From Stegostoma tigrinum (lineage: Eukaryota), in contig NC_081387.1 in NCBI RefSeq assembly GCF_030684315.1, positions 11,200,867-11,264,866 on the forward strand: a stretch of 64,000 nt of DNA, given 5' to 3'. The translations under genes were made by a program, and so were the position numbers. Positions 13,021 through 64,000 of the stretch are shown here, in pieces (positions within the stretch are counted from its first letter, which is position 1; the number at the start of each line of letters is the position of its first letter). A model generated the notes under the pieces. It was not told the origin of the DNA. It ran no database searches and saw only the letters and a program-made list of their open reading frames with translations.

Positions 13021-13069
13021 GTAAGTCAGTCTGATCAGACCATTCTCAAAGGTTAACACTCTCTTCAGT

Positions 13070-20362: not shown

Positions 20363-20472
20363 GCTTTCTGAAGAGACGCCCACTGTTCTGCCAGGGAATG
20401 TGTGCCTGGGAACATATAAAGGTCCATTACAGTACAAACTATGGAAGGAAATGAAGAATGTCATCCATCCAG
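20363..20472 (+). CDS. TRIM linker exon (110 nt)
   Basis: LSEETPTVLPGNVCLGTYKGPLQYKLWKEMKNVIHP contains the GxYKGPLQYxxWKEM motif typical of TRIM69/XNF7/A33-type TRIMs. Confidence 0.92.
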
Positions 20473-22320: not shown

Positions 22321-23089
22321 AGGTGACATTTTTTTTTGGTTTGGGTGATCCAGCAAATTGAATTGGAGCTGCAATAATGAAATTGTTGTCATGTAGAACT
22401 TTAGCAGTGTAATTAACAATTGTAGCAACAGACTGTGATCAGTGGTCTCTTCACAGTCTGAGTGGGTATGGACTGTTAGCTGAAGCCAGGGGAGGTTTTG
22501 GAGTTTGAGATCTAGTCTTGTAGCATTGGTGGCATATAGCACAGAAACAGACCATTTGGTCTGGCACATGCCAGGCATTGTATTCTGGATCCAATTTGAT
22601 TGGTCAAGCTTGAAACAAACCCATTTTATTCATAGTTAAAATTCAGTAAATAGGTAAGAATTTGGAATGACGTAACTATTATTGGAAAAATGAACAGAAT
22701 AATAGATTATGTAACTACTAAACACTAGTAACGTAGTAACATTCCACAAATGCATCTCTGACAATGGCAAATTCAGTGAAATAGGTTGTCTCTCATGCAA
22801 TTCTGCAGACCAAGAGAAAAGATATCAAAAGCAAACAGTATGGGGAAGAGATATGCAGCTTCAAAACCACCACTACTACTGAAAAACTAAAACAAAAAAA
22901 TCTTGGATCTGTGGGAGGTTGCTTCTATTATTTCAACACTTGGATTTTTTTTTAAATAGCACTCTCAAGCTGTTCACTTTATCAGCTGAATGTACAGACT
23001 GGCACCTTTTTTTTTGTCTCAACTTTTTTCCAATTAAAACCAGACAAAATACACTTCCAAGCCATAGTATCGTACTTCCATAATCCCCT

Positions 23090-23380
23090 TCCAAATGCAT
23101 GACCACTTCCATCTAGAAGGACCAGGGCAGCAGATGTATGGGAACGTAACCACCTTCAAGATTTCCTCTGAGCCACTCACCATCCCGATTTGGTAATGGA
23201 TCGCTGTTCCTTCACTGTCGCTGGGTCAGAACCCTGTAATTCTCTCCTAATGGAATTGTGGGTCAACCCACAGCAGGTGAACTGCGGTGGCTCAAGAAGG
23301 GAGCTCACCACCTTCTCAAGGGCAACTAGGGACAAACAGTAAGTACTGGCCAGCCAGCAATGCCAGTGTCCCACAAATGA
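23090..23380 (+). mobile_element. LINE (L2-like) 3' end
   Basis: Same family as 2740-3085; ends in GGGACAAACAGTAAGTACTGGCCAGCCAGC...ATGAA. Confidence 0.6.
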
Positions 23381-23761
23381 ATTTTTTAAAAAAAACTGAA
23401 CCCATATCTACCACTCCTCTGGAAGTTCATTCCATAAGAAATGTTTGTTCTCTGATCATTGGGCACTCAGATTTGAGTAATGAGCTTTTTTTTGACTATA
23501 AACTTCTTTTTAAAAACATGCTCTTTACATTTTCCCCTCCAGGATCTTTGTATGGTTGAAATTATCCAGCTGCTAAATCAAACAGGTATGACCTCAGCCT
23601 GTCCAACTTCATACAGCCCTGACTCCCTTTCCAAACCACCTCCTTTACAGATATTAATCAAGCAAATCTTCTTTAACTTTCCTCAATACAATTAAATCCA
23701 TACTATTCAAGTGACAAATTTCCTTTGGGATGCCACATTGCCACCATGTCACCCAGTTGAC

Positions 23762-24030
23762 CAAAGTGGTTAGCACTGCTGCCACTGTGCCAAGCATATA
23801 GGTTCAATTCCAGCCTCGCGTGACTGTATGGAGTTTGTGCATTCTTCCCATGTATGCATAGGTTTCCTCCCAAGGGCTTCAGCTTCATCCCACAGCCCAA
23901 ATATGTGCCAGTGAGGTGGATTGGCCATGGGAAATGCAGGGTTACAGGGATAAGTGGGTCCAGGTTCTCTGTGGGATGCTGTTTTAGAAGGTTGGTACAG
24001 AATTAATGGGCCAGAATGGTCTCTTTCCGT
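23762..24030 (+). mobile_element. V-SINE-like element
   Basis: GTGGTTAGCACTGCTGCC, GGTTCAATTCC, TATGGAGTTTGTGCATTCT. Confidence 0.75.
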
Positions 24031-24571
24031 ACTTAGTTCTACGAAACTGCCTACAAAACACTGTTGTAATCCAGATTCCAACAACTTGCTGTTTTTTTTA
24101 AATATTATCATCTTCTTCTTCTTGAATTACCTTAAATCTGGATCCACTTGTTCTCTACCCTATCATGAGTGGCAATATTTTCTCTTTGAACTGTCCTGGC
24201 CGCTTGTCATCTTGAATACTTTAGTTATATTGACCTTCTAAAACCTTTCCAACATATCTGATCTGTCTTTATAACTGAAACTTCCCCATCCTGGAAACCA
24301 CCTTGATAATACCTTCATTCTCTCATGCCCTACTATCCTTGCTAAAGGAGAACACTCAATTCTCTAATATACTCCAGTTGTGGTCAAACTACTGTCTAAC
24401 TTTCAAATAACATCCTTGCTTTTGTGTACTGTTTATTAATAAAGTCAAAGGTACAGTGTGCTTCAATCTGCTGTGCACACTTTTAAACATGTGACCCTGC
24501 ACCCTGGTTCCTCTGACTTGTGCCTGGCTTGATGTGTTTTCCCTTGAACACTGGGAGACTGTACTTGTAGC

Positions 24572-24892
24572 ATCGTGGCTAAGTGGTTAGCACTGCTGCT
24601 TCTCGGGGTCCCACGTTCAATTCCATCCTTGGGTAACTGTCTGCGTGGAATTTGCAAATTCTCCCCCTGTCTCCTCCTGGGGGTTCTGGTTCCCTTCCAC
24701 AGTTCAAAGATGTGCAGGTTAGGGAGGTTGGCCATGCTAAATTAGTGTCCAGGGATATGTGGATTAGCAATGGGGAGGGAGGGGTTACAGGGTAGGGTAG
24801 GGGATGGATCAGGTTTGGGTGGGATGCTCTTTAGAGAGCTCGTGTGGACTTGTTTGGCTGAATGGTCTGTTTCCACACTGTAGGTATTCTAA
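24572..24892 (+). mobile_element. V-SINE-like element
   Basis: GTGGCTAAGTGGTTAGCACTGCTGC, GTTCAATTCC, GTGGAATTTGCAAATTCTCCC. Confidence 0.75.
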
Positions 24893-26948
24893 ATAAGACT
24901 GGAATTGGTTCTTAAGATCTACCCCCTTTCTCTTTACCACATTGAACTTTAATTTGCCTGCTCCACAGTCTTGTCGTCTGGATTTCATAATTTACACTGC
25001 TCCTGTGTTTTCTCTAGTCCCCAAAATTTGAAACTTTTGCTGTGTACAAGATCTAGATCACAAATGTATGTGAGGGAACTGAGGAGCTCCACGCTGAATC
25101 CTAGGCATCTTGCTATTAGCATTCCTGCAGTTTATAACATGTTCATTAACCATCATCATTTCTTATCTTGCTGCCAATCTTTGTAGCCATGTCATCACTA
25201 ACTGTTTTATTCCAGGATCTTTAAAATCATTCACAAGTCTATGTGGCCTTTCTCGGAATGCCTTCTGGAAGTCCATACATACTGCAGCAAGAGCATTGAT
25301 TTGATCAACATTGTAACTTCCATATTTATCTTAACTCTCTCTCTCTCTTTTGAATCTTTAAAATCCAGACTGGCTCACATTAACCCACATTTATACACTT
25401 AGCTCTGTTCAGAATTATTTTCGTCACTTCCCAACAATTGAAATTTGACTGGGCTGTAGTTTCTTCGCTTGTCCTTGCACGTAGTCTGTTTTGAACAAGG
25501 GCCTAATTTGTGATTCTCAAGTTCTGTACTCCTGTCCAGGGTCTAGCAAAACTGAAATAGCTAGTGGCTCTGCAGTCTCTGTTCTTGTTTCCCTACTGCC
25601 TTAAATGCGTTCCATCTGGTATAGTTCCTTTTTCAACTGGACAGATCCTTCTTCACTTTAAATACTCCTAGGAACCAAATTCTCCCTTTGACAATGGCCA
25701 GGGCAATGCCATCTTCAGTCACAGTGGATGCAAAGTTTTTTTTCTTCAATAAATCAGCTGTCCTCTCTACCACTATGTCCATCTGTTTGGTCACTGATCG
25801 TCCTCTTGCCCGCTTGCCTTTTTATTTGCATACAGTAACTTAGGGTTTTTTTTTAGCTGCCAGTATCTTCTCTCACTGGCTTTTGCTTTTTCACTACAAG
25901 CAGTCTGCTTCTGTAATCCATTTTGCTACCTGATCATTCAGAAGCCCACTTTTTTGGGTTTCCTTTTTTTTATACCCCTTAACGAACAGAACTATGTTTG
26001 ATTTCCCTTTTTTTTAAATGAAGGAATATATGCCTAGTACTTTTAAATTATGGCCTTTGTGACTCTTCACTTGCATGGTGTACAAGTTGTCTGACATTTT
26101 TAGTGCAGCATTACGCAGTGGAGTCTTCACAATAATGATTCCTCAGTGCCCTGTAGTAAAAGATGTGTGATTTTTTTTTTCAGCCAATGTTGATTTGTTG
26201 GGGGGAGGGGGAAAACCAGGAGCCAAATTTCAGAAAAGATCTGAACTATACCCAAAGCAAGAGTTCATTGCCTCCTTGCAAGCAAGAAGGCTGGTCTGTA
26301 GCATTCCATTTAAATGAAAGACCTATTTATCGATGCAAGCTGATTACAATTTTGAAGGCCATTTATTGTGGGTGACACAGGAGCAAATGAAGTCTGGCTT
26401 GTTTGCTACTGCATACAAGTTCAGACAGAGTTTTCTTTTTTAGTTGGGTGAGAAATATAGGCTGTAGTTTGAGGCAGCCTTGGTAACTGTACAATATTTC
26501 AGTTAGGCTGCTGCAGTGCAGTGTTTCAACTTCTACAGTCACTCTTCTGATCAAGAATGTCCACCGGAAACGTGTGCCTCACTTAAAATTGTTTTTTTTC
26601 CTGGGGGCATAACCACTATAAGTGAGGATTTACCATAATTTATCTCTGTTCTTAGCCCTTACTGCCCAGTTGACTTTCTCACTTCATGCTTTTCACTACA
26701 GATTTGTGTACTGTTCTTATTTTCACTAACATAATTCAGTGTGGACTCTTGTGGCACAGTGGTAGTGCTCCTATTCTCGGCAAGGAGGTCTGGGTTCAAG
26801 TCTCGAGTACGGAGGTGAATCATAACCATTGCTGAACTGATCACATTGGATATCTCTAATACAGTGATTTACTGTCCCTCCTAAGTGTTTCTCCCACTGA
26901 TGCTTAATCCATTTGGCACATCTCATTTTGCATTTGTTTGTTGTGCAG

Positions 26949-27493
26949 TTCCCCTCAGTCTGACCCTGGATCCTCAAACAGCAAACCCTTGGCTCCTGCT
27001 ATCGGAGGACCAGACCAGTGTGACTGTCATCAAAACCAAGCAGATTGTCCCTGATGGCCCGGCCAGATTTGACGTGTGTGTGTCCGTCCTGGCAATGGAG
27101 GGTTTCACATCTGGCGCACACTACTGGGAGGTGGAAGTGAGCAGCAAGTCCAAATGGGACCTGGGTGTAGCCAGAGAATCCATTAACAGGAAGGGAGACA
27201 TAGCTTTGAAGCCTGAGAATGGATACCTGGCAATTTCCCTGACCAATGGAGGGCAGTACTGTGCTCTGACATCCCCCACTGTCACTCCCCTGCAGCCGAG
27301 TGGGAGACCCAGTCGCATTGGTGTTTACGTGGACTACGAGGGAGGCCAAGTGTCCTTTTACGATGCTGCTGACTTTGCTCATCTCTACACATTTACTGAG
27401 ACATTTACAGAGAAAATATTCCCTTATTTTTGCCCCTGTCTGAATGACAGTGGAGACAATGGTGCCCCTCTTTCTGTGGTTTCCTTTCAGTAG
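26949..27493 (+). CDS. TRIM terminal PRY/SPRY (B30.2) exon
   Basis: LTLDPQTANPWLLLSED, RFD, GFTSGAHYWEVEV, WDLGVARES, IGVYVDYEGGQVSFY, FTEKIFPYFCP. The spliced CDS is 1425 nt (474 aa) with no internal stop. Confidence 0.96.
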
Positions 27494-29636: not shown

Positions 29637-31512
29637 TTCGCTTACAAATGAGAGTAAAGGGATATTTGAGGGTGGGCAATAGCTCCTGTCTGAACATACT
29701 CTGGGCCACTGCATAATGGTACTGTTTGTGCAGCATCTCAAAAGCTGGAACATAATTCCTGTCTTTTCATAAATCTCAAAAGGGCTAAGTAGAATGAGAC
29801 AAGAAAGATGCGTGTAATTTAATGTAAGTTATACATGACTGTTGTTATCCAGAGCTTGATAAAGCAGCCGACACTGCGAAGAGTAAAGCAATAGACTTAC
29901 TACACACACAGAGGTTCTTTTGGGTGTGACTGGCTACTAAACTGTGTCTGGTCGTGAGGATGTTCAAAACGAAAATTGAGAAGAATGTGAGTTAAAAAGT
30001 ATTCAGTCTAAGAAAATGCCATTGTTGCACGTGGAAAATAAATTACTGGCACTATTATAGCCGCATGGTATATTGTTCGCTACAGCATTAGGAACATGCA
30101 AGAAGGCCCAGGGAATATTTTGCTTCAAACAGAAGAACAAGCTCATTTTAATGATCACCACAACAGCAGTTTTCACTATGCAATATTTTTGATTTCAGCT
30201 TCTGACAGCACGTGGCTACACAACGATCAAAGGTAGAGGTGACCATGAACCAGACAGAAATCTCTACAGCAGTCGACGGGACGAGCAGAGTAAATGTACA
30301 GACAAGAATGCAGAGCACCGTAGAGTTTCTGTAATAAATCGTAGCAATCACCATGAAATCTGCTGTCACTGTGGCCACCAACCTGTGAGTGATGTGTTTG
30401 GTGAGACTGCATTTCCCACAACTCAGGATCACGATTGCCACCAGGTTCACTGAGAATTAGAAAAGAAAACACTAGCATAACTGGTTGTAGGTACCAATTA
30501 TGTGTGATCTGGCATTGGCGTCAGCATTATATTTTCTGTTTGTGTTCTGCTCTGCTGTGCTGAAGATGCTAGTCATTCTGGTGGATTGAATTTGTTATGG
30601 TTCACTGAGATAGTGCTCAATTCAAGCCCCTTGTTCCTGAAGTCTTTGTTAATAGTTACAACTTTTTTTTAAGGTTCTCAACATTCCTCAATTTGCATGA
30701 CCCAGAAAGGACAGACTAGTTTTAATGACAATTGCTATTTATTAGAAAGAAATAGAACATTGTTACAAGTAAATAGTTACAAACTTTAGTGTTTTAGCTG
30801 GTAGCATTAAATGCCAAATACATCATAATTTCCCCTTGTGCAGAAACACACACACAAACACAGTTTGAGGAGCACAAAAGCTGATGTTTCGGGCCTAGAC
30901 CCTTCATGAGGAAGGATCTAGGCCTGAAACATCAACTATAGAAGGAGTTAGGAGAGCCAGATTAAAAGGTAGCAGAAAAAAACAAACAATGAATAAAATA
31001 AATAAAGTAAGAAGGAAGGCAACAACAACAATAAAAGAGAGAGTTGGAAAGGTGAGATGCTTCATATAATACAGTGTATTAGAGAAGAAATCAAGATTAG
31101 AGATTTCGTAAGAACCGATAAAACAAATCGTAAAACATTAGACAGCACCAGGAATTGAAGTGAGTAAAAAAGTCAACAATAACACGAGTATAATTGATCA
31201 AGAGATATGAAGTTACTGAGATTTAAAAGAAAATAGAAGAGGAGTAATGATAGGGGAATGCAACCTTCATTGATAGCATGAAAGATGTAATATGTTGAAC
31301 AGAAGACAACATCAATAAAAGAGAGAAGACAAAATTTTCTGAAAGTAAAAACAACTTCAACAGTGGAGATGCCTAAATGAGAGCAAAGCTCAAAGTCTTA
31401 GAGATCAATACAACACCTTTACTGAGAATAAAACTCAAAGGAATATAGTACATACCAGGCACTCCAACTCAGTGAGGATAGGATAGTATTGGAGGCATTT
31501 CTGGATAAATGT
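29637..31512 (-). pseudogene. GPR139-like class A GPCR pseudogene (exon 1 ~31456-31512, exon 2 from 30449)
   Basis: Fragments YYPILT.., VNLVAIVILSCGKCSLTKHITH, STFDRCVATCCQKLKSK and FRQELLPTLKYPFTLICK fall in different frames. Multiple indels relative to the intact paralogue at 46.6-49.9 kb. Confidence 0.9.
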
Positions 31513-37948: not shown

Positions 37949-40900
37949 CCATAAGACCAGAAGACCGTAAGACATAGGAGTGGAAGTAAGGCCATTCGGC
38001 CCATCAAGTCCACTCCGCCATTTAAATCATGGCTGATGGGCATTTCAACACCACTTCCCTGCACTCTCCCCATAGACCTTGATTCCTTCTGAGATCAAGA
38101 ATTTGTCGATCTCTGCCTTGAAGGCATCCAACGTCCCGGCCTCTGCTGCAGTCCATGGCAATAAATTCCACAAGACCATCACTCTCTGGCTGAAGAAATG
38201 TCGTCTCGTTTCAGTTTTAGTGACCCTGCACTTCCAAGAATTTAGAAATCTAACGGAAACAACTTCCTAGCGTCCACCCCTTCTAAACCATACATTATCT
38301 TGTAAGTTTCTATTAGATCTCCCCTCAACCTTCTAAACTCTAATGAGTACAGTCCCAGGATCCTTAGCCATTCATCATACGTTAAAACTACCATCCCAGG
38401 GATCATCCGTGTGAATCTCCGCTGGACACGCTCTAGGGCTAGTATGTCCTTCGTGAGGTGTGGGGCCCAAAATTGGACACAGTATTCTAAATGGGGCCCA
38501 ACTAGAGCTTTATAAAACCTCAGAAGCACATCGTTGCTTTTATATTCCAACCCTCTTGAGATAAACGAAAACATTACATTCGCTTTCTTAATTACTGACT
38601 CTACCTGCACGTTAACCTTTCAAGAATCCTGGACCAACACTCCCAGATCCCTTTGTACTTCTGATTTGTGAATTTTCTCACCATTTACAAAATAGTCCAT
38701 GCCTGTATTCTTTTTTCCAAAGTGCAAAACCTCACATTTACTCACATTGAATTTCGTCAGCCATTTCCTGGACCACTATCCTAAACTGTCTAAATCTTTC
38801 TGCAGCTTCCCCACCTCCTCAGTACTACCTGCCTGTCCACTTATCTTTGTATCATCGGCAAACTTCACCAGAATGCCCCCAGTCCCTTCATCCAGATCAT
38901 TAATATATAAGGTGAACAGCTGCGGCCCAACGCTGAACCCTGTGGACACCACTCGTCACCAGTTGCCATTCCTAAAAAGAGCCTTTTATCCCAACTCTCT
39001 GCCTTCTGTCAGACAGCCAATCCTCAATCCAAGCCAGTAGCTCACCTCAAATACCATGGGCCCTCAACTTGCTCAGCAGCCTCCCGTGAGACACTGTATC
39101 AAAGGCCTTTTGGAAGTCTAGATAGATAACATCTACTCGGTTTCCCTGGTCAAACATACTTGTTACCTCTTCAAAAAATTCTAACAGGTTTGTCAGGCAC
39201 AATCCCCCCTTACTAAATCCATGCTGACTTGTTCTAATCTGACCCTGCACTTCCAGGAATTTAGAAATCTCATCCATGACAATGGATTCTAGAATTTTAC
39301 CAACTACCGAGGTTAAGCTAATCAGCCTATAATTTTCCATCTTTTGCCTTGATCCTTTCTTAAACAAGGGGGTTACAACAGCAATCTTCCAATCATCTGG
39401 GACTTTTCCAAACTCCAGTGACTTTTGAAAGATCACGACCAAAGCCTCTACTATTTCCTCAGCCACCTCCCTCAGAACTCTAGGATGCAGCCCATCGGGG
39501 CCAGGAGATTTATCAATTTTTAGACCTTTTAGTTTTTCTAGCACCTTCTCTTTTGTAATGCCTACCATACTCAACTCTGCCCCCTGACTCTCCCTAATTG
39601 TTGGCATACTACTCATGTCTTCCACTGTGAAGACTGACGCAAAGTACTTATTAAGTTCTTCAGCTATTTCCTTATCTCCCATCACTAGCCTTCCAGCATC
39701 AATTTGGAGGTTTTGCCTCTCGTTTGTTTCTTATGTATTGAAAGAAGCTTTTACTATCATTTCTAATATTACTAGCTAGCCTACCTTCATATTTGATCCT
39801 CTCCTTCATTATTGGTCTCTTTGTTATCCTCTGTTAGTTTTGTAGCCTTCCCAATCTTCTGATTTCCCAGTGCTCTTGGCCACTTTATAGGCTGTCTCTT
39901 TTTCTCTGATATATTTCCTGACTTCCTTTGTCAGCCATGGCTGTCTAATCCCACCCCGGATAATCTTTCTTTTCTTTGGGATGAACCTCTGTACTGTGTC
40001 CTCAATTAAACCCAGAAACTCCTGCCATTGTTGCTCTACTGTCTTCCCCGCTAGGCTCTGCATCCAGTCGATTTTCGTCAATTGCTCTCTCATGCCCCTG
40101 TAATTACCTTTATTTAACTGTAACACCATTACATCTGATTTTGCCTTCTCTCTTTCAAACTGCAGACTGAACTCTACCATGTTATGATCGCTGCCTCCTA
40201 AGCGTTCCCTTACTTTAAGGTCTTTTATGAAGTATGGCTCATTACATAGCACTAAGTCCAGAATAGCCTGCTCCCTTGTGGGCTCCATCACAAGCTGTTC
40301 TAAAAGGTCATCCTGTAAACATTCCATGAATTCCCTTTCTTTGGATCCACCGGCAACATTATTCACCCAATTCACCTGCATATTGAAGTCACCCATGATC
40401 ACCGTGACCTTGCCTTTCTGACAGGCCCTATCTATTTCTCAGTGCATCTTGCGCCGCTGGTCCTGATCACTGTTAGGAGGTCTGTACATAACTCCCATTA
40501 CAGTTTTTTTTGCCTTTGTGGTTCCTCATCTCCACCCACACAGACTCCACATCTTCTGACCCTACGTCATTCAGTGCCGTAGATTTAATTCCATTCTTAA
40601 CTAACAAGGCAACCTCACCCGCTCTGCCTACCTTCCTGTCTTTTCGATATGTTGTGAATCCTTGGATGTTTAGCTGCCAGTCCTGAACTCCCTGCAACCA
40701 TGTCTCTTGTGATGTATACCACATCATAATCATTCAAGAGGATTTGTCCTGTTAATTCATCCACTTTGTTGTGAATACTATGAGCATTTAGATAAAGTGC
40801 CTTAATGCTAACTTTCTTATCATTATTAGAGAGGTTAAGATGCCTTAAGCTATCCTCCCTTTTTGCTGTATTCCTAGTTTGCGTCGAGCTTAAACCCACC

Positions 40901-41866
40901 TGTACACATGCTATCCTGTTGCTTATCTTTCCATTTAACTCCATACTCCCTGCCTCTTTCACTTTCCCTTCCCCCGACTCAGAAGTTTAAAGTCCTACTG
41001 ACCACCCTATTTATCCTTTTCGTTGGAACACTGGTTCCAGATCGGTTCAGGTGAAGATCGTCCCAATGGTACAGATCCCCTGGTTCCAAAACTGATGCCA
41101 ATGCCCCATGAAATGGAATCCCTCTTTCCCACAACTACCCCTAAGCCACGTGTTTACTTCCCTAACTTTCTTTTCCCTATGCCAATTGGCATGTGGCTTG
41201 GGCAGTAATCCGGAGCTTATGACCCTTGAGGACCTGTATTTCAATTTCTTTCCTCGTGCTTCATAATCCCCGAACAGGCCCGCTACCCTAGCTTTGCCGA
41301 TGTCGTTAGTCCCAACATGGACCACAACAACTGGATCCTCCCCCTCCCGCTCCAATATCCTTTCAACCCGGTCGGAGATGTCCCGCACCCTGGCACCGGG
41401 CAGGCAACACACCATGCGGGACTCCCAATCCGGCTTGCATGGGATATTATCTGTCCCCCTAATAATAGTATCCCCTATAACAACTACCTGTCTTTTTGCT
41501 CCCCCCTCTTGAATGGCCTTCTGCAGCACGGTGCCATGGTCAGCTGGCTCATCCTGTCCACAGTCCTTTTCCTCATCTGTACAGAGAGCAAGAATCTCAT
41601 ACCTGTTGCTCAAGGTCAGGGGTTGAGGCTCCTGCACTCCTGAATTCTGAATCCCCTATGTGCCTCACTTACAGTCACACCTTGTCCCTAAACACTTTCT
41701 GAATTTGAGTTATTTAATCTACCGGGTGTGACTGCCTCCTGAAACCAAGTGTCCAGGTAACTCTCCCCCTCCCAGATGTGCCGCAGAGTTTGAAGCTCAG
41801 ATTCCAGATCATTTACTCTGATCCGGAGTTCTTCCAGCAACCAACACTTGCTGCAGATGTGGTCAA
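37949..41866 (-). mobile_element. Near-full-length, decayed CR1-clade LINE (ORF1 zinc-finger/coiled-coil + SGNH esterase; ORF2 APE + RT)
   Basis: ORF1 has CSKCWLLEEL, VVVIGDTIIRGTD, CCLPGARVRD and VVVHVGTNDI. APE has ALYLNAHS and IMGDFN. RT has KSPGPDGLHPRVL, YRLISLTS, QHGF, YLDFQKAFD and FADDTK. The 3' end is a TCTTATGG-like microsatellite tail. Stops and frameshifts are present. Confidence 0.95.
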
Positions 41867-46591: not shown

Positions 46592-47487
46592 TCACTTACA
46601 AATGAGAGTAAAGGGATATTTGAGGGCACACAGCAGCTCCTGCCTGAACTTACTCTGGGTCACTGCATAAATGGCCGTGTTAGTGCAGCAACTCAGGAGC
46701 TGAAGCATGATTCCTGTCTTTTCATAAGTTTCGTAAGGGCTAAATAGAGATGAGAGGATATAGATGCTTGTAATTCGATAATATAGGAAATATGTGACTG
46801 TTGTTATCCAGAGCAAGATAAAGCTGCCCGATATTGCAAAGAGCAAAACAATGGACCTTCTGCGATTTTTCATCTCATGGTCTTCACCATTTTCAGCATT
46901 ACTGTTGTGGACTCGGAGGTTCCTTCGTGCCTGGCTGGCCACTAAAATATGTCTTACAGTGAGGATGTTCAAACATAAAATCAAGACAAATGGAAGAGTG
47001 GGAGTTAACAGCTGTTCAATCCAAGAAAATGCCATTGCTTGAGATTGAAAATAAATCACTGGTGATACAAAACAACCCCTTGGTATGTCGTTCACTATCA
47101 CATAAGGAATGTACAAGAAGGCCCAAGGAATGTTTTTTAAACTGAAAACCAAGGTCAGTGTAATGGTCACAGCAGTAGCAGTTTTCACTGAGCAATACTT
47201 AGATTTCAGCTTCTGGCAGCAAATGGCTACAAAACGATCAAAGGTAAAAGCAACCGTGAACCAGACAGAAATGTCGATGGCAGTCGGAGACAGGAACAGA
47301 ATAAACCTACAAACTGGAGTGTACAGCAGCAGAGAATTCCACCAATAAATAGCAGCAATCTGATGCAATATCACATTGAAGACAATCACCATGAAATCTG
47401 CTGTTGCCATGGCCACCAGGTAGTGGGTGATGCACTTGGAGAGACCACATTCCCCTCGACACAGGATTACAATTGCCACCAAGTTGA
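46592..47487 (-). CDS. GPR139-like class A GPCR exon 2 (spliced protein 321 aa)
   Basis: Hydrophobic 7TM-type segments with YLVAMATAD (TM2), FTFDRFVAIC (DRY-like), LPF..IL..N, RRRSIVLLFAISGSFILLW and NTAIYAVTQSKFRQEL (NPxxY equivalent and helix 8), of GPR139/GPR142 type. Open frame with an AG acceptor at 47488-47489. Confidence 0.9.
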
Positions 47488-48290
47488 CTATGAGAAATAG
47501 GAAAAAAACACAGTAAGATAACAGGTTTTAGCCAACAATAATGTATTAACTAGAATAGCATTGACATCAAATTTTCTCTTTCTTTTCTGGTCTTCTCTAC
47601 TGAACGTGCTATCATCTTGGTTGAATAAATTTATAATGACTTATTGGGGTAGCACAAAACTCTAGACCCCTGTTCCTTGAGTCTGCGAGAATTCCCCAAA
47701 TTGCCTGATTTTTGATCCTGGTTGACAGAAAGCATGGACAGGGTTTCTGTCTTTATCAATATTTACTACTTACAAAAATCTAATGGAGCATATTTACGGG
47801 CACATTGTTATAAGCCATAGGAATAAAATACTACTATCTAAAACTCATACATTAGTCACATGCACACATCAGAAAAAGAAAGGTTTTGGATGAAAGAAAT
47901 ACTGGGAAGGCAGTTCAGCGGTTTCCCTTCACAAAATGATTATGATTCCTGTACTGGAAGAATGTTGTTTCTCAGTCACCCTTGCCTTCTGCTCCCAGTG
48001 TTATCTGAGAAGCATAGGGTTGCTGCTCCACTTTTGGATGTCCTAACTTATTAGAAGTCGTAACTTCTGTGTGAAAAATAAGCAGGTTTTCTTCAGGTTT
48101 AAAGTCGCTCGTAGCACAGATGGGGCGTGGTAGGTGGGGTGGTGGTTGGGAAGAGAGAGAGAGAGAGAGAGAGAGGCAGAGATATCCTAACTGATGGAGA
48201 TCCAATGGCTACCCTGTAATTCTTCCCATCCCAAGATGTTGAATGACTTGCAAACAAATCTTCAATTACCTGAGAACAAATCACATGACT

Positions 48291-48734
48291 AGCGAGTTTT
48301 GAGAAGATTTGTAGCTCAGGTTGAGGTTCTGGAAGTAGTTTACTCGCTGAGCTGGAAGGGTCGTTTTCAGACATTTTGTCACCAATCTAGGTAACATCAT
48401 CAGTGAGCCTCCGGTGAAGTGCTGGTGTTATGTCCCGCTTTCTACTTATGCCGGAACTATTTCTATTTATCCAACCAGAACTCCATCAACAAACACATTG
48501 ATTTGGAGCCCATCTACCACCCTCTGAGAAAAAGAACAGGAAATGACACCACTGACGCAGGAAATGATATCAACACAGGAAATGACATCACCTACCCAAG
48601 GAAACCTAAACACATAAATAGACAGCGGGACATAACACCAGCGCTTCACCGGAGGCTCACTGATGATGTTACCTAGGATGGTGACAAAATGTCTGAAAAC
48701 GAATCTTCCAGCTCAGCGAGCAAACTTACATCCA
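48291..48734 (+). mobile_element. Penelope-like element with inverted pLTR arms and a 13-bp TSD, in the GPCR intron
   Basis: Arms ~48327-48450 and ~48613-48734 are reverse complements. The interior encodes NSINKHIDLEPIYHPL (PLE ORF end). TSD AAATCACATGACT at 48278-48290 and 48735-48747. Degenerate hammerhead CTGATGATGTTACC..GGTGACAAAATGTC. Confidence 0.85.
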
Positions 48735-49800
48735 AAATCACATGACTGTTTGGAGGTGGAAAGTCTTTGTCCTTGGTAACGGGTCAATAGCAGTCCACAA
48801 TCAAATGTGCTACATTTACCAATCAAGGCTGCATTTGTACACAACCTGTTGGGTCCAGTTAATCTGCAAACACTGCTGTAACCCATAGCAGTGCAAATAT
48901 TGTTCATAATAAATATCAAATAGTATGCCTTCAATATATGGAACAATCCTTGGTTTTTAATACTCTAAGACAAAAGAAAAGCAGGCCATTTGGTCAGCTC
49001 TGCTGTGTCATTCAATGAGGTTTCAGATGATCTGATAATCTTCAACTCCACATTCCTGTCTTTTCCTCATGACCCCTGATAACTATATTATTTTCAATCT
49101 GAAGAGTCACTTTGGGAATTTGAACCTATTTGTTACTTGAACTTTTTAATTTAAACTTCTCTAAGCAACACCAATCCAGTAGGAAAGGTAAAATTTGATA
49201 GCACCAAGCATAAATCTTAGCAAGAGACAGGCAATAACTTCAGAAAGAGTTAGGAGAGTTTATTATTAGGCTTATGAGAGCCGGCTAAAACGAAGTAGAA
49301 GAAAACAAACACATCATATACAACAAAGAAATAAGAGGGCAGGCAATAACAAAGATAAAAAGGAATAAGAGAGGAGAGGTAAATTGTCTCAGATTTAAAG
49401 AAAGTGTATCAGATGAGAAATCAAGATGAGAAATATCAGAAGAACAAACAAAACTAAGAGTGGAAATAAATCAGTACTCTGAATAAAAGTACGTAAGGCA
49501 GTAGACAATAACAGGAGTGGAAGTGATCAAGAAAAGAGACATTATTAAACTAAAAAGCAAATAAAAGAAGAGTCATGACAAATGATAATGGAATCCAACC
49601 TTGTCAACAATATGAAGGATTTAATCTGTTCAAGAGAAGGCAACACCAGTCAAAAGAGAATGTTAAAGAGAGGACAACATGTTTTGAAAATGAAGGCAAC
49701 TTCAATAGTGGAGATGTCTAAATGAGAGCAAGGCTCACAAACTTACAAATCATTATAACACCTCTCCGGGGAATAAATTTCATTACAATATAGTACTTGC

Positions 49801-49870
49801 CAGGCATTCCAAATCCAGCAAGGATAGGATAGTATTTGGATGTAATTGGAGACATTGGTGTTCGAAACAT
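49801..49870 (-). CDS. GPR139-like GPCR exon 1 (70 nt), GC donor
   Basis: MFRTPMSPITSKYYPILAGFGMP + G|GCAAGT, phase-compatible with exon 2 (V-NLVAIV). The paralogue has G|GTATGT at the same position. Confidence 0.8.
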
Positions 49871-52149
49871 TCTCAATGTGCTGTGAAATCCTGCTGTCAT
49901 AGAGACGTTTGATGTAGCTTTAAGAATAAAGAAAAATGATTGAAGTTTATATACGCTAAAGGGAGTCCCTCCTGATACTGCGTCCCTCAGTGAATTTGGT
50001 CCAAGGTGTGGAACATACAAGATCCTCATTGCACCTGTGTTTTCCCTGTGGAAGGTATTAAGCAAAGACACAACTTCATCTACACCTTTGGGAACAACAG
50101 CAATACATTGAAATAATGACGCGATATATTCAGACTTTAAGCCAAGTAAATGACGAAGATTATATCTAAAGTTAAACAATTAATTGTGACTGTTGTATTC
50201 AAACTTTTCTTCCATGTTTTTTACCCTTGTTGCACTTCATCTGTCTCCCCTAAGTCCAGTCCCTGTTGCCTCAACTCTCTCATAGGTAGTTGTCACTGGT
50301 TCCTATCCTGATTCCACATGTTTCCATGAAATTTCTTCCTTTTCTTTATATCCTTTACACCAGAACGATTTCTCCCTCACATGACATGAAAAGGGAAAAG
50401 ATGGACTTACTCTGTAGGTCATAAGAATGTAAGAAACAGGTGCAGGAATAGGCCTCCAGCTTGCACTGCTAATCACCTAGGTCACGGCTGTTTTATTTTA
50501 TCTCAGCTCCATGCTCCTCATTCTCCACATCTGTCTTCATTCTTTCTGAGATTAACAAAAGCTGTTTTCTCAGTCTTAAATATATTCAATGGAAGATCAC
50601 CAAACATTTTTGTTGTAAAGAATTCCAAAGTTTCACAACCCTCAGAATAGACAAATCACTCCTCTTCACAGTTCCTCACCATTGACTGCATGTTGTGAGG
50701 ACGGGTCTTCATATTCCACAGCCAAAAGATTCAATCTCTGGCTGTTTGGCCTTTGAAGCATTTTCTGATGTTATGTAGGAGGGTCTGTGCCTTTGGTTAT
50801 TAAGTTGATGTGTTAACTCTGTTTGCCTGCACTGTTGCTGCATGACCTGCTGAGTATTTACGGTGATATTACATTTGTTATTACAATCAGAATCTTCTGT
50901 GTCAGTGAGATCACGTAGCATTCTTAGAAACTCCAGAGTCTAAGCACAAACGTCAAAGACCTCACAGTCGTGGCAAAGCTTCCTGTTCTATTATTATAAT
51001 CATATTCCATTACAGGACCACATGCCACTAGGCGTCCACATAGCTCACTGTATCTGCACACCAACATTTTCTATTCAATATCTGAGTATACACGGTTTCT
51101 CTAGATATTTACATTTTTGGAAAGTTTCATAAATGTTCTGATTTTTGTTTTGTTCTACAGGCTAAAGTCTCTTGCACCACCTCCTCACATTGCAGTCTGT
51201 TGTGATTCTGTTACCCACATGTCGAGATATTTTTACAGCTTCTTCTTTCCTACTTATATTATGTCCCCAACTGTCTTGGTGACTTTAATATCACCTAAGA
51301 TATGAATGTATGTTCCTAATAGCTGAGGCTTCAGCATTGATCTTCATGGCATTCTACTGGGAACAGCTGATCAAGTTGAAAGTGCATCAGTTATGCCAAC
51401 TCTCTGCTTCCTCTCTGTTAAATATTCCTACAGATTGGGAGGAGTAAGCAGCAAGTCAGCATTACTGTTAAAAAAAACCTAAATCATGCTTTTGGTATGT
51501 TAGAATTATAGTGAAGCAGACCAGGAGGAGCGTGCAGCAAGTCAGCATTGCTACAGGAATTCAGCATCACTTTAAAGCAGAATGGCAGAGTGGACATGTG
51601 TGAGGAGTGTTTCAGTGGAGGGACATAGTAATTGGAAACAGAGCCTCTTCAATCTGTTCTTACCTCTTGTTGCCAAAGTGTGTTGTCACAGGAAAACAAG
51701 GCAATTGGTGTGTGTTTATTCCATGTGGTTTTGATAGGCCATGTGGCTTATATTAGGAGATGTCAGTATATATGAAAGGTACAGTTAAGACTTTCAAACT
51801 TAACATGTTCAATATCTGAATGAATGCATTATAAGGAATAGAGTTTGCTGGACTTTTAATGTGTTGCAGCTGCAGTATAGTAGAGCTGGTAGATACTGCT
51901 GTGATCGAAGTTGACCAAATCTGCACAAAGTATTGACTGCAGCCAGATTTGATGGGCTAGGGACTCAGCGACTGACACCATGACACATCAGGGATGGGGG
52001 TGGGAGGGTGGTGGGTGCAGGGTGGTGGGTGTAGGGAAGAATGATCTGAACATTGTTTCAGAGTCAGGCACATCCCATAATTTAATTAGATAAAATTTGG
52101 ACAGTACACAGGCACAACGGATATGACTGTGAGTGTTGGACTCCAGAAC

Positions 52150-57628: not shown

Positions 57629-57671
57629 ATGCGCTGGATTGCAGTTACCTGGATCACCGCTGTACTCTCAG
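57629..57671 (+). pseudogene. NCR3/NKp30-like gene, leader exon
   Basis: ATG CGC TGG... encodes MRWIAVTWITAVLS + G|GTAAGC (phase 1). It joins AVAVG-NITVIQSP to give a plausible signal peptide. Confidence 0.8.
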
Positions 57672-58019
57672 GTAAGCAGGTTTAGGCATGAATTGACATC
57701 AGGCTCGCACTGGAATGTATGATGTATTCTCGAGGAGTTGTCTTTTCGCGTTAGGGCATCTCAGCACAGTGGCTGTACTGTCTGAGCAACACCGATCCAT
57801 CTCCAAACGGAAGCTCCCTGAGACAGTTGTCATGCAGAGGTTGATGCTTCACAGTCCCTTCTGGTGAATTTATGCATTTAGTTTAGGGGCTAACAATGTG
57901 AAGGAAAGTACAGTGTCGACATTGGGAATGGAAGGAGTACCAACCAGGGAAATCAAAAAACATTGGGTGGGATGAGGAGAGAATTTAGGATAGTACCAGC
58001 AAAAGTATTCAGAATACGA

Positions 58020-58400
58020 CTGAGACAAAGATAGATACCTAGATAGATAGGTAGACACATGCTAGACGTATGGACAAATGCATAAACAGACAAATGAATA
58101 TATTGATAGCTCGATCGATGGAAAGGTAGAAAAATGGGCAGACAGATAGTTGGATGTTTACATCAGTAGGTACGCACAAACAGAAAGATTGTTAGATAGG
58201 TAGATCAATAAACAGATTTATACGCACAGATAGGGAAAAAAGACACACGGAACGATAGTCCAACGGTCACATAAGCAAAATAAAGATATATAGATAGATA
58301 GTTAGGTGGATGGATAGGTAGGTAAATGGATAGAACGAGATAAATAGGCAGATCGAAATAATGAATGAGTCAGAAAGACACGACAGAAATGCATAGTAAT
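58020..58400. repeat. Degenerate (GATA/GACA)n microsatellite region
   Basis: Recurring TAGATAGATAG, GACAGATAG and AAACAGA motifs. Confidence 0.75.
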
Positions 58401-59420
58401 TAGGGGCAAATCAATAGAAATAGATCCTCTCTCACATGGTGTTTTGTTGCGATATGGGATGCATTTTGATTTCAGGGCACTTTGCAATTTGTCTCTGCCT
58501 CATGACGCGGCAGATACACGTTTAACAACAGCATTCAAAATGGAATCGGCAAAATCATTAGAAGATATATCGGTACTTCGATATAACGAAAGAGAGCAGC
58601 GTGTGAGCTAATCATTCTCTGAAAGAGATGGCGCAGTCTCCCTGGAATGAACAGCCTCTATGTCTGCCGTAGAATTCCAGAATTCTTCCCTTGCAACATT
58701 TTACAAGTATTCCTTATCCCTGAGAATGATTAGCAGTGCTGGCTGGATCGAGCCAAACAATTGTTTTCGAATCTTTTTTGTCGAAGCCCCGAATAATTGT
58801 AACCATTGAAGGGAATATAGAGAAACAGACATAATTTTAGCAGGAGTAGGCTTGCTTCACCGTTCATTGTGATGATGGCAGATTATACAACTCAGTAGCT
58901 TGCTCCCGCTATATCCCCGTGTGTTTCTCTTAGACCCAAGAGTGTGTCCAACTCCTCCTGGAAAACATCAATGTTTGGGCCTCGACTGCTTTCTGTGGCA
59001 GAGAATCCCACAGGTTCCCCACGCCCTTGGTGAAGGCATTTCCCCTCATCTCAATTCCAGATAGATTACCCCATATTCTTATAGTTAGACCCCTGGATCT
59101 GGCCTCCTCAGCAGTCGGGAATATCCTTTCTGCATTTGCCGTACCTATCTAGTCCCCTTTCTATGAGATCCCTCCACCACCTCTTCGTTCTAAGCTCTAG
59201 TGGAGATGACCCTAACGCAATCTTTCACTAGTTTTTAATTTGAGGTATTATCGGTGCAGCTGTCTCCTACGTATGAAACATTTCTTTCGTCAGTAGTTTA
59301 AGGAATTTGATAAGCAGCGCTTAAAGAGACATGGCCAGGCATTTAAACTTTTACACTATAGCTGTGTAAGAACAGATAGACCACAGCGTTTATGCAGGAA
59401 CACAGGAATAGGAGGAGGCC

Positions 59421-59648
59421 GCAAAAATAACGTTGGTGGAAGAGCTCAGCAGGTCTGGCAGCATCTGTGGAGGAGAAAACAGAGTTAACGTCTCTGGTCC
59501 GGTGACCCTTCCTCAGAATACCGGGCCCGAAACGTTATCTCTGGCTTCTCCTCCACAGATGCTGCCAGACCTTCTGAGCTTTTCCAGCAACTTCTGTTTT
59601 TGTTCCTGATTTACAGCATCCGCAGTTCTTTTGGCTTTTTTGTTTAAA
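59421..59648 (+). mobile_element. Fold-back PLE-derived element with a 14-bp TSD
   Basis: TSD AATAGGAG(G/T)AGGCC at 59407-59420 and 59649-59662. Inverted arms meet at hammerhead-like CTGAGGAAGGGTCACCGG / CCGAAACGTT. Confidence 0.8.
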
Positions 59649-60336
59649 AATAGGAGTAGGCCAATCAACTTGCTCGATCCTGTACCACTATTTAATGGCA
59701 TTACATCTAATCTCTCCGCTGGCAAACCGTTCACCGCCTGGTAATGTCATCACATGAAGGGGGAGGAAATTTGCCTAAATCCACACGCCTTCCAATTTAC
59801 TCCTTTCCTAGTCAGGAATATTTCGCAGCGAGACATTCGAAAGACTGCGCACAGATTCCAATGCGAAGAGACTAGCACCACGACAGTCTCAGCAGTAACA
59901 CTATGGTGGGGGCTGAAGGGATACTTTTCCAGAAGAAGTAAAATCCCGCATTGTTCATTTGACACTATCGATCTGAATAGAGATCGCACCCAAGGAAAAG
60001 GCACATGCATCAAACTGGTGAAAGCAGAGATGGCTTTCTTTTCTCTGTGAAATTAATTCACGCGTCATATTTGTATGAAAGAAAAACCCGACAATTTGTG
60101 TGAAACAACCTGAAACTTGGCTTAGTTTATGAGATTCGGATGAAATCAAGATGCAGCACAGAAAGGAGCTCCATTACCAGAACAATATAAGCGAAAGCAA
60201 AACACAGAGCAATTGCCAGAGCTTCAATATGCAGTGGCACTACAAGCATAATGTTGTATTAACACTGGAATTCTACAACGTGCTTGAAAAATAAAACGGA
60301 CTGCAGTTTTATGAAGTTAGTCTTACCCACTTACAG

Positions 60337-60677
60337 CAGTTGCTGTTGGAAATATCACAGTTATTCAGAGCCCGGACTCTCTCACCAAAACGCCGGGCCA
60401 GACAGCGCGCCTGGGCTGTACGTATTAGGGACCCAGCGGCATCGGCAGCTACACGGGGCACCGGGGAAACAAGGGGGGAATGAAGTCTCCACCAACACAG
60501 CGGAGTTCCGAGGCCGGGTGTTGGCGGCGGGCCAAGGGGATTTCAGGGACAGGAGAGACGCCTCGATCAGAATCGTTGATCTGAAACCGGAGGACACCGG
60601 GTTCTATATCTGCGAGGTGGCTTTCATGGGAATGCGGGAAGCCTATGGAGCAGGGACCACGCTGACAATGACGCGGG
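60337..60677 (+). pseudogene. NCR3: NCR3/NKp30-like germline-joined VJ-type Ig V exon, disrupted
   Basis: NITVIQSPDSLTKTPGQTARLGCTY*GPSGIGSYTGHRG / GNEVSTNTAEFRGRV...DASIRIVDLKPEDTGFYICEVAFMGMREAYGAGTTLTM resembles recalled NKp30 (IGSVTW, KEV.NGTPEFRGRL, YVCRVEVLGLG.GTGNGTRL). Lesions: TAG at 60426-60428, Trp-to-Gly at 60456, a -1 frameshift in the G run 60473-60478, and donor TTAAGT. Confidence 0.82.
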
Positions 60678-60769
60678 TTAAGTGCGGGGCAGCTGAGCTA
60701 TTCCTAACGAAACAATATGGACTTAATCATGGAAGTTCATTCCAGTAATGTATTTCTTTTCGGCTCTAG

Positions 60770-60829
60770 GCAAACTATCCACTCTGTTAACCCAAACTGC
60801 TATCTCTACAGTAACGACATCAACCTCAG
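60770..60829 (+). pseudogene. Candidate Ser/Thr-rich stalk exon of the NCR3-like gene
   Basis: Polypyrimidine + TAG| GKLSTLLTQTAISTVTTSTS G|GTACCC. 60 nt, phase 1-1. Confidence 0.55.
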
Positions 60830-60904
60830 GTACCCCTTCAATTAGCACACTATCCGGGCTTGGAATGATCAATATCTCGCAGTACCTGACTCAAAATCCT
60901 GTTA

Positions 60905-61223
60905 TGATTAGATTAGATTCCCTACAGTGTGGTAACAGGCCCTTCGGCCCAGCAAGTCCACACCGCCCCTTGAAGCATCCCACCCAGACCCATCCCCCTG
61001 TAACCCACAAACCCCTGTACACTACGGGCAATTCAGCATGGCCAATCCACCCTGGCCTGCACATCTTTGGACTGTGGGAGGAAACCGGAGAACCCGGAGG
61101 AAACCCACGCAGACACCGGGAGAATGTGCAAACTCCGCACTGAGAGTCGCCCGAGGCTGGAATCGAATCCGGGTCCCTGGTGCTGTGAGGCTGCAGTGCA
61201 AACCACTGAGCCACCGTGCCGCC
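60905..61223 (-). mobile_element. tRNA-derived V-SINE-like (HE1-type) element
   Basis: Reverse complement has A box GGCACGGTGGCTCAGTGGTT, B box GATTCGATTCC, core GTGCGGAGTTTGCACATTCTCCCGGTGTCTGCGTGGGTTTCCTCCGGG and a (TCTAA)n tail. Confidence 0.85.
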
Positions 61224-62062
61224 CCCTCCCTAATAAACACTGTAGGTGTGTAAGAACAGATAGACCACAGTGTTGAGGCGGAAACAAGGAGTTCGAAACT
61301 GTCCCACCGTGTAATGACATTATAGCTGATCTGTAAACTAACTTCATATATCTGTCTTTGGTATTTAACCTTTGCATAACAAAAAATACTCTCTCAGATT
61401 TAAATTAACAGCAGATTTAGCATCCACTACAGTTTTGTGTGGAGAGCTCCAAATATCTACCACCCTTTGTATGTAGAGGCGCTTCCTGATATCTCTCCTG
61501 AACGGTCTGGCCTCAGTCTCAGACTATGCCCCTTAATTCCAGAAAACTCGTTCAGTGGAAGTAGTTTTAATCAAATGGCTCGTCTTCTTCAGAAAGAAGC
61601 CGCTTTAGAGGTTCACAATGAATACTGAACTTCTCAGCGGTGGCTGAATTCCTCAGAAGTAATGATTGAGATTATTAAAATTGGATTTCAGACAGTTTTG
61701 GGCAATCGTTTAACAAGTAATCGGTCATTGGGTGCAAGTGGGGAATTGGAATGCTAACGAGGGCAATAGATGGGACTTGGGGTATTTCAGCGGGTGAAAT
61801 AACACCCGGTAACCAATGGCCCGAAACTGATAGCAGTGTCTTAAAGTTCCTGAATTAACGTCCCGATCGTGCCCCCTGAAGAATTGGAAACTCTCCTTTC
61901 GGCCGCTACGTCAGTTTGTGTTTTCATTCGATGACTAAGTATGATCAAGGCCATTGAAAAATATTAGTCAAGAGCTGCGCACCGCGCAGAGTTGAAAACT
62001 TGCGCACTATTCACTGACCATCATTCTAACCTTGCCTGTTCTTTGTATAGACTTTCGCACAG

Positions 62063-62191
62063 GTAATGAGGGGAACAGCACAGCCGAGTCCAAGTCAAAT
62101 ATCTCTCTTTTTGTGTTTGCAATGGCGGTGGAGTTGTCTCTCCTGTTCATCATGGTGGTTCTCGTCATTGTCATGCACTGCCAAAAGACTG
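62063..62191 (+). pseudogene. Transmembrane exon of the NCR3-like gene
   Basis: CAG| GNEGNSTAESKSNISLFVFAMAVELSLLFIMVVLVIVMHCQKT G|GTAACA, phase 1-1, with a hydrophobic stretch of ~23 aa. Confidence 0.8.
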
Positions 62192-62224
62192 GTAACAATC
62201 CGAATTTGTGTGCCTGTGAGTATC

Positions 62225-62815
62225 ATAGTCACATCATCGGACAGCACCGAAACAGGCTCCCAATTCCGCTCGCCCATGTCAGCCAGGTTTTCCACACTAA
62301 ACTAATCCTATTTGCCTCATTTTGGCCCATAGCCCTCGAAGCGTTTGCTGTTCATGTCCCTGTCCAAATGTCTTTCCAGTGTTGTAACTGCAGCACTTCC
62401 TGCTGGCATTTCATTCCGTATGCGCATCACCCTCTGTGTTTACAACGATGCCCCCTGCAGTCCCGCTCGATGGTTTTCTCCTCTCATTTTAAACCTATGC
62501 CGTCTAGTTGTGAGCTCCCTTTCTGTAGGGAAAGTACCTTTTTAGTATCCTTGCCCCAGTAGACGAGACGTATGCAGTTCTCCAAAAGTGTTCTGTACAG
62601 CCACAATATGACATCCCAACTCCTATACTCCACGCACTGACCAATGAAGTCAAGTATGCCAACTGACTTCTTCATCTCCCTAACTGCCTGCGATCCCACT
62701 TTCAAGGAAGTATATGCTTGAATCCTTTCTGGTCTCTGTTCCATAACACTCCCCAAGGCCCTACCATTCACTACGTATGTCCTGCCCTGGCTTGTCTTAA
62801 CAGGATACAACATCT
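62225..62815 (-). mobile_element. CR1 LINE 3' fragment in an NCR3-like intron
   Basis: The ORF-track peptide QGRTYVVNGRALGSV.EQR...FIGQCVEYRSWDVIL.LYRTL is a CR1 RT C-terminus. Confidence 0.75.
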
Positions 62816-63238
62816 CATTGTCGGGGTATGAACGGTGCTAACTTTGCAAGTTTTAACCTGTAAGTCGGCCAGGTTGAGTTGGAACGCTGGCTATAAACTC
62901 CCCGAGCCCGTTCACTGATTCGCTTTGAATTGGGAGTCGTGTTGTGGCCCTGGGTGGCTGAAAGCAGCACAGCCTCCCTCACATTGGGCTATTTCTCAAG
63001 AAGGGAGTTCAGTCAACTTGGACGACACATTATGTCAATAAGGAGTGAACTTAATTATGGGCTCAGAAATTTAATAATTCTGTTCCCACTTTCCTTTCTC
63101 CACAGCCACTCCTCAGCAACCCGAAAGGTAACCGGCTGGATAGAGTCAGTTATTTGATGCCCGATCTGGTATTTCGCTTGTTATCTGTGATTTCTTCAAC
63201 ATCTCACTTCCCTGCTGTACATTTTATTTTTGCTGCAG

Positions 63239-63273
63239 GCCAGTTCCCCTGTACGCAGAGATGTATAAAGGAG
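63239..63273 (+). pseudogene. Candidate cytoplasmic-tail micro-exon
   Basis: Strong acceptor TTTTATTTTTGCTGCAG| and donor GAG|GTGAGT. One frame reads PVPLYAEMYKG (Tyr motif), but that frame is not in phase with the TM exon. Confidence 0.5.
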
Positions 63274-64000
63274 GTGAGTAACACAGAGAAATATGCATAA
63301 TATCTCGGTTTATAGATTGAATTTGACTTCTCTTTGATGGGGTGGCTAATTGTATCTTTTGATAGTTCTAATCTGAAAATCTGTCAGAAACTAGAGATTA
63401 ACGATGACTTGGAGAATGCCAAGGGGTCATATAGATTTTCTCTCTTAACTCGGCGAATCACTGTTATCTGGAATACATTGACTGATGGGGAAACATGAAA
63501 TACGATAAGAGGAATTTTCGCCGAGAAATAGATGTTTCAAAGGAGGCGAGTTGCAGGATTCATTGGGAAAAAAGTAGCAAATTGGGCTTGATTGGCAGCA
63601 CTTTTATGTTGCATCCTATAATATTACGGTGTCGGGTACTGTATTTTAATGTATAACCTTAAGTGGAGTTTGTTGAATTATACGATATTAATCGCTTCTC
63701 TGTTGCCTAGAGACAGGGTGTCTAGTGTTCGCTCTGAAAGCAGAAGAACCGACCTGATACATAACTCCAATTATAACATCAGTGAACTTGGTAACTTGGT
63801 TGTCAATATTTCCAGCTAGTTTGTAGCCATTGTCATTGTGCAGATGGAGATAAAGAAGCGAAGACTCTTGTAGCACAGTCATAGAATACCCCTGGTTTAA
63901 CAGGTCTGGGATCTAGTCCCACCTGCTCCAGAGGTATGTTGTCGCCTCTCTGAGCAGATTGGTCCAAACACATCTGGATAAATACGCAAAGCTCGGGGTA

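Follow-up and report, generated by a model that had tools for sequence, protein, structure and literature searches.

Is a V-set receptor gene near the right end of a stretch of zebra shark (Stegostoma tigrinum) DNA still able to encode its protein, and to which family does it belong? The stretch, hereafter the window, comprises 64,000 nucleotides (assembly GCF_030684315.1, contig NC_081387.1, positions 11,200,867 to 11,264,866), and an earlier note made from its letters had described the gene as an NKp30/NCR3-like receptor carrying several independent lesions. We find that the gene is very probably a young zebra shark pseudogene derived from one old shark NCR3/NKp30 subtype, whose receptor is no longer made.

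Six exons can be placed by homology between 57629 and 63273 on the forward strand (Table 1), which bears out the leader, V, stalk, transmembrane (TM) and tail exons that had been assembled by hand. The architecture, leader followed by V, stalk, TM and short tail, matches that of the NCR3/NKp30 family, and 9/10 internal splice sites are canonical GT/AG, the sole exception being the V donor. The V exon (341 nt vs. 342 expected) runs from strand A through the GAGTT segment with its GxG and is thus a single germline-joined VJ-type exon, as claimed; both Cys and both Gly are retained, as they are in 62–63 of the 63 family V domains, and a Pfam V-set match (E 5.3e-7) falls on its 3′ half. The 20-codon stalk exon is missing from the bamboo shark gene models. 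At the other end, read-through at 63274–63281 encodes Gly-Glu-stop, the same ending as in nurse shark (Ginglymostoma cirratum) NCR3 (P0001, 213 aa). Bamboo and horn shark models splice onward to exons with immunoreceptor tyrosine-based inhibitory motifs (ITIMs), and the subtype may therefore have alternative short- and long-tailed isoforms. An Rfam scan gave no matches.

Named shark NCR3 matches, NKp30 structures and a V-domain tree all agree on the identity of the gene. Read through its breaks, it is identical to P0001 at 163/210 residues (77.6%), and tblastn with the nurse shark protein matches V and stalk at a summed E of 1.5e-54, far beyond chance. Used as a query, the 3′ half of the V exon, which is still open, picked out three of 6 candidate proteins: P0001 at 85% and, at 77%, two proteins of bamboo sharks. 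The P0001 query picked out five of 257, the additions being a horn shark protein and the product of a second bamboo shark gene. Querying with just the 5′ half returned weak antibody matches and was uninformative. CD8, CD7 and TCR-like families, which the earlier note had named as alternatives, did not come up as best matches. When the five shark proteins were combined into a profile and compared with solved structures, the four human NKp30 entries came top (E 4e-18 to 1e-17) and SIRP followed (2e-11), with T-cell receptors (TCR) and antibodies weaker than SIRP; P0001 alone returns the same order. In a tree of 58 V domains, made by a quick method on few columns, the zebra shark gene is sister to P0001 within an eight-member clade to which the bamboo and horn shark proteins also belong (Shimodaira–Hasegawa-like approximate likelihood-ratio support, SH-aLRT, 97). 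On these sequence comparisons the gene is a member of an old subtype whose conservation extends from horn shark to nurse shark. A wider profile search returned 571 proteins at E ≤0.001, from which 33 were used (the top-scoring 28 of 146 new ones and the five close homologues). Many NCR3-like relatives in that search (P0007–P0012, P0014, P0016 and others) have two to five tandem V domains per predicted protein; these may be real multidomain receptors or annotation fusions, and in P0006 gene prediction seems to have merged two neighbouring NCR3 genes.

The V exon carries the clearest damage. Three of the lesions previously reported there were found exactly as described, namely the in-frame TAG, the GGG in place of the C-strand Trp codon and the TTAAGT in place of a GTAAGT donor. 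Spliced as it stands, the gene would yield a product that ends after 44 aa. The remaining lesion, reported as a 1-nt deletion in a G6 run, does shift the frame by −1, but the description is imprecise with respect to the base that was lost. Among the five closest homologues the residue before the indel-site Gly is Arg in 3/5 and Gln in 2/5, which makes it probable that a base other than G was lost. The run more probably arose by loss of the non-G first base of an Arg or Gln codon, to judge from these homologues, whereas a plain homopolymer slip would need an additional, separate Arg-to-Gly change, although Gly does appear at this preceding codon in 5/63 family V domains. One base upstream of the dead donor lies a GT that is weak and out of phase. 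Rescue by cryptic donors near the V end was considered and ruled out, since the TAG stop sits upstream of them.

Further damage lies beyond these four lesions. The zebra shark gene departs from the five homologues at 5 of the 56 columns in which they all agree (W55G, N67T, S80G, I95V and V126M), and the glycosylation-type sequon removed by N67T aligns with one in human NKp30. The TM helix contains a Glu (GAG) at 62131 where relatives have hydrophobic residues; this Glu is one base from Val, it occurs in none of the intact relatives examined, and the helix has no Arg or Lys. Downstream of the six assigned exons we identify a probable exon 7 with a frameshift and a dead donor. At 63727–63753 it agrees in 7/9 residues with the tail exon that comes next in bamboo shark P0002, a score reached by 0/88 control tiles. 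The boundaries of this exon are drawn from protein only, with the acceptor at 63710, and an acceptor two bases later would preserve the frame.

These observations fit the following course of events. The intact gene would have encoded a type I membrane receptor in which a split leader preceded a single germline-joined VJ IgV domain, followed by a Thr/Ser stalk, a TM free of charged residues and a tail with tyrosine motifs. One null mutation would have released it from selection, and the remaining lesions would have accumulated afterwards. A V-containing transcript would now stop at codon 45, far upstream of the later junctions, so that nonsense-mediated decay is expected, and the dead V donor should cause intron retention or V skipping as well. 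Further NCR3 subtypes, shown in other sharks and presumed for zebra shark, probably made the loss tolerable. No intact Stegostoma protein of this subtype was present among the matches of the V-exon and P0001 queries, though the database holds Stegostoma proteins; these searches were word-based and length-limited, with one protein shown per 90% cluster. This lack of an intact member points to loss of the subtype, not to decay of a spare recent duplicate.

The earlier note judged the inactivation probably recent, and in sequence terms the pseudogene is young. Polarised amino-acid changes number 18 on the zebra shark branch vs. 15 on the nurse shark branch (188 columns, p = 0.73), with no acceleration visible yet. 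By exon, the counts are 6 vs. 8 in the V exon and 8 vs. 3 in the TM exon (p = 0.23), the latter including loss of a juxtamembrane Lys and Arg. Neutral divergence since inactivation, estimated from the two hard lesions after the first, is ~0.02–0.03 per site, a crude figure whose interval (0.003–0.11) uses assumed indel rates; the amino-acid changes cap the estimate near 0.045. Because shark substitution rates are slow, the inactivation may still date back millions of years. The split between zebra and whale sharks is placed no later than 48.6 million years ago (PMC10620051). Absence of a whale shark orthologue from the shark matches was set aside as a sign of shared loss, as a neighbouring receptor gene likewise lacks a close whale shark match among the 120 matches listed.

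Several points count against this reading. The evidence is one haplotype's assembled DNA, and both fixation and silence extend beyond it. All three hard lesions of exons 1–6 fall in the V exon (chance 0.08–0.16), and this clustering leaves room for a retained V-less form. The relative-rate comparison above is not significant, so relaxed selection lacks statistical support. An ITIM-bearing last exon was not found in 63282–64000, where the best score is equalled by 79/88 control tiles; nurse shark P0001 likewise ends without such an exon. Finally, no zebra shark NCR3 paralogue was seen, and profile and blastn searches found no second NCR3-like exon in the 64-kb window. The multigene family to which the earlier note assigned the dying copy is documented for other elasmobranchs, with 2–5 NCR3 genes per genome; zebra shark may have one too, but these 64 kb hold no second copy.

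How do other explanations of the locus fare? Assembly or consensus errors in an intact gene are very unlikely. The indel does lie in a G run, and the donor could be explained by loss of a single G from a G4 run that precedes GTTAAG. However, most of the lesions are substitutions, the stop and the Trp change among them, and slippage in the G run fails to account for the indel, which makes the lesions most likely real. The window contains no N, and neighbouring genes show 0 frame breaks in 2,307 coding bases (P = 0.011, at the upper bound, for at least three breaks in 345 nt), a control that is biased in that intact open reading frames were chosen and a decayed receptor copy was left out. Two zebra shark assemblies have been published, one built from HiFi reads (bioRxiv 10.1101/2025.02.26.637739) and the other from 95.8× short reads (PMC10620051), and both use accurate reads. 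If the lesions are real, an intact allele could still exist in other zebra sharks or on the other haplotype, as is often the case with natural killer receptor genes. Such a segregating null would agree with the low overall divergence and with the sampling of a single haplotype, and NCR3 status does change quickly, the gene being dead in most mouse strains and intact in Mus caroli (PMC6514059). However, four to six independent lesions together with changes at conserved sites need a long-lived dead lineage (~0.02–0.03 substitutions per site), and the V-exon and P0001 queries recovered no intact Stegostoma protein, so we consider this explanation unlikely.

A more radical alternative is that the gene survives without its V domain. 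Because the V exon has phase 1 at both ends, its omission, which the dead donor would force, preserves the frame and would give a 98-aa leader–stalk–TM–tail stub with an acidic TM and a YxxM tail, able in principle to pair with a basic-TM receptor in the manner of DAP10. The layout of DAP10 is an acidic TM residue plus a YxxM tail, and the resemblance is architectural. The five non-V exons all have open frames and canonical sites, the YxxM is retained, and the TM Glu is peculiar to the zebra shark gene among the relatives examined. Were it true, loss of the ligand-binding exon would have turned an inhibitory VJ receptor into a signalling adaptor resembling DAP10, an outcome that would surprise specialists. 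Nevertheless, we give this scenario a slim chance: clustering of the lesions in V is not significant, the Glu needs one base change, the TM exon is the most changed on the zebra shark branch and has lost its juxtamembrane Lys and Arg, as decay predicts, and the TM-exon open reading frame, the part that was scanned, has no Pfam match at E 0.01, including the DAP10/DAP12 adaptors. It is also very improbable that the gene belongs to another VJ-type family (SIRP, the CD28 family, CD8 or UrIg) or is an orphan TCR or immunoglobulin (Ig) V segment. Among solved structures SIRP V domains come second (E 1e-8 to 2e-11), the NCBI name of the horn shark relative is SIRP-alpha-like, and antibody chains rank above NKp30 for a 66-aa fragment, via summed repeated domains. 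Yet NKp30 leads by 5–7 orders of magnitude over a full-length alignment, and the nearest protein is named NCR3. In the relatives V joins straight to stalk and TM with no C1 domains. The PPP/EIP motif in the FG (CDR3) loop that is a CD28-family hallmark (PMC11599192) is absent from the translation, and the two matches resembling recombination signal sequences in the window (21876, +; 31624, −) are not near the V exon. Structure ranking and tree thus largely refute other families at the sequence level, and the reading as a young NCR3 pseudogene is retained.

The intact subtype was probably inhibitory rather than activating, since its intact relatives lack a TM Arg and carry ITIM-like motifs. The TM is uncharged in P0001, P0002 and P0005, and the TM arginine of mammalian activating NKp30 is absent, with no Arg or Lys in the helix of these three or of the zebra shark gene. 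Because a named nurse shark NCR3 also lacks this Arg, its absence excludes the activating type, not the NCR3 family. Downstream of the exon 6 YxxM, one or two ITIM-like motifs follow in P0002, P0003, P0005 and P0006. Inhibitory signals would presumably have passed via tyrosine phosphatases, and, by analogy with NKp30, the receptor probably bound a B7H6-like ligand. On the other side, the last form to work may have had a short tail lacking ITIMs, because P0001 ends right after YxxM by reading into the intron, as the zebra shark gene could.

The surroundings of the gene suggest where in the genome it lies. On the MHC (major histocompatibility complex) chromosome of the catshark, rnf20 and NCR3 are 0.8 Mb apart on opposite strands (supplement of PMC10751288). 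RNF20 and the NCR3-like gene of zebra shark are also on opposite strands, in the same relative orientation, an indirect sign that the zebra shark gene is likely MHC-linked; the window itself contains no MHC gene. The same supplement counts five NCR3 genes in tandem in white shark, three in sawfish and two in catshark (PMC10751288). RNF20 stands head-to-head with a TRIM gene, and catshark rnf20 is likewise head-to-head with an unnamed gene. Between the TRIM gene and the pseudogene lies an intact GPR139-like G-protein-coupled receptor (GPCR) gene, whose exon at 46595–47488 (−) shows 100% identity along 298 aa with a GPR139-like protein of Stegostoma tigrinum, in keeping with a zebra shark source, and whose next relatives among the matches listed, from distant sharks, reach 69–70%. 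A second, heavily decayed GPR139-like copy is an older pseudogene in the same interval.

Table 1. Exons, lesions and neighbouring features of the zebra shark NCR3-like gene, in window coordinates
Feature	Positions	Strand	Remarks
Exon 1, leader	57629–57671	+	14 codons; phase-1 donor GTAAGC intact; 13/14 identical to P0001
Exon 2, leader end and whole VJ-type IgV domain, including GxG G strand	60337–60677	+	97/112 identical to P0001
Lesion: in-frame TAG	60426–60428	+	Glu in nurse and horn sharks, Gln in bamboo sharks
Lesion: GGG (Gly) at C-strand Trp	60456–60458	+	Trp in 62/63 family V domains
Lesion: one base missing, −1 frameshift across G6 run	60473–60478	+	Homologues have Arg/Gln-Gly here
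Asn67 to Thr, N-x-T sequon lost	60491–60493	+	Sequon invariant in five closest homologues
Lesion: V-exon donor TTAAGT	60678–60683	+	After phase-1 G at 60677
Exon 3, Thr/Ser-rich stalk, 20 codons	60770–60829	+	Canonical sites at both ends; 15/20 identical to P0001
Exon 4, stalk end and TM helix	62063–62191	+	26/43 identical to P0001
Exon 5, tail-1	63106–63127	+	Comparison with nurse shark NCR3
Exon 6, tail-2, with YAEM (YxxM) motif	63239–63273	+	Donor at 63274, or read-through to TAA 63279–63281
Probable exon 7	63711–63756	+	46 nt vs. 41 expected (frameshift); then AT where GT expected (dead donor)
RNF20/BRE1A 5′ exons	76–9437	−	Pieces 79–612 and 4638–5060 match human BRE1A
Presumed first coding exon of RNF20	near 9003–9437	−	Recognised by eye
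Tandem repeat inside RNF20	5556–5874		69 nt × 4.6, 98% identity
Tandem repeat between RNF20 and TRIM gene	10838–10980		GC-rich, 27–29 nt × 5
TRIM gene	11494–27493	+	RING, B-box and PRY-SPRY exons; open in exons examined
Presumed CR1-type LINE (long interspersed nuclear element) pieces	15713–16417; 38242–41655	+; −	Translations resemble reverse transcriptase, endonuclease, ORF1
Decayed GPR139-like copy	29641–30462	−	Many stops and frameshifts
Intact two-exon GPR139-like GPCR	46595–49900	−	Identical to Stegostoma protein P0152

The locus is best read as an ordinary pseudogene, one belonging to an immune receptor family that evolves by birth and death. It would record the lineage-specific loss of an old NCR3 subtype in zebra shark, which is useful for annotation and for counting shark NCR3 turnover, and the subtype looks inhibitory, unlike mammalian NKp30. 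Kinlein et al. 2021, outside the scope of our literature search, reportedly describe eight divergent MHC-linked shark NCR3 subtypes. Within that search (including PMC12272517 and PMC10450919, in the portions of text available), no paper on a zebra shark NCR3 pseudogene was found. The earlier note also pointed to the VJ exon as the type proposed to resemble the ancestor of antigen receptors. That link is published for NCR3, but it applies to every NCR3 (PMC12227049, PMC10751288) and adds nothing for a broken copy. The VJ exon is thus not a new finding, and the locus sheds no new light on antigen-receptor origin, since earlier papers describe both this exon type and the MHC linkage in intact NCR3 genes.

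Comparison with known systems places the gene more precisely. Nurse shark P0001 is like it in six-exon content, including the 20-aa stalk, and in the Gly-Glu-stop ending, and unlike it in having an intact frame, Trp and Asn67 sequon and an uncharged TM. The bamboo shark proteins LOC122541165 (P0002) and chiPu_0017018 (P0003) and horn shark P0005 belong to the same subtype clade (V domain 64–79% identical), but their tails are longer and contain one or two additional ITIM-like motifs, on an exon not found in the window, and their models lack the stalk exon. Human NKp30/NCR3 (PDB 3pv6, 3noi, 6yjp, 9fww) has the same single VJ-type IgV domain and shares segments around the C strand, the D strand and the G-strand GxG. 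It differs in its TM Arg, through which it signals via CD3zeta/FcRgamma (PMC6514059). The shark subtype has no such Arg and has tyrosine motifs instead. Mouse Ncr3 is single copy; the mouse thus lost its only copy, whereas sharks have several subtypes. The mouse Ncr3 pseudogene is nonetheless alike in being a lineage-specific inactivation of NCR3 (PMC6514059). UrIg and UrIg2 share with NCR3 a non-rearranging VJ exon discussed as an antigen-receptor precursor (PMC12227049). The same paper, which cites nurse shark NCR3 accessions MT914154-914161, treats NCR3 as an MHC-linked VJ gene that does not rearrange and places UrIg nearer than NCR3 to Ig/TCR. UrIg and UrIg2 carry C1 domains and are closer to Ig/TCR, whereas the relatives of the zebra shark gene carry a VJ exon and no C1 domain.

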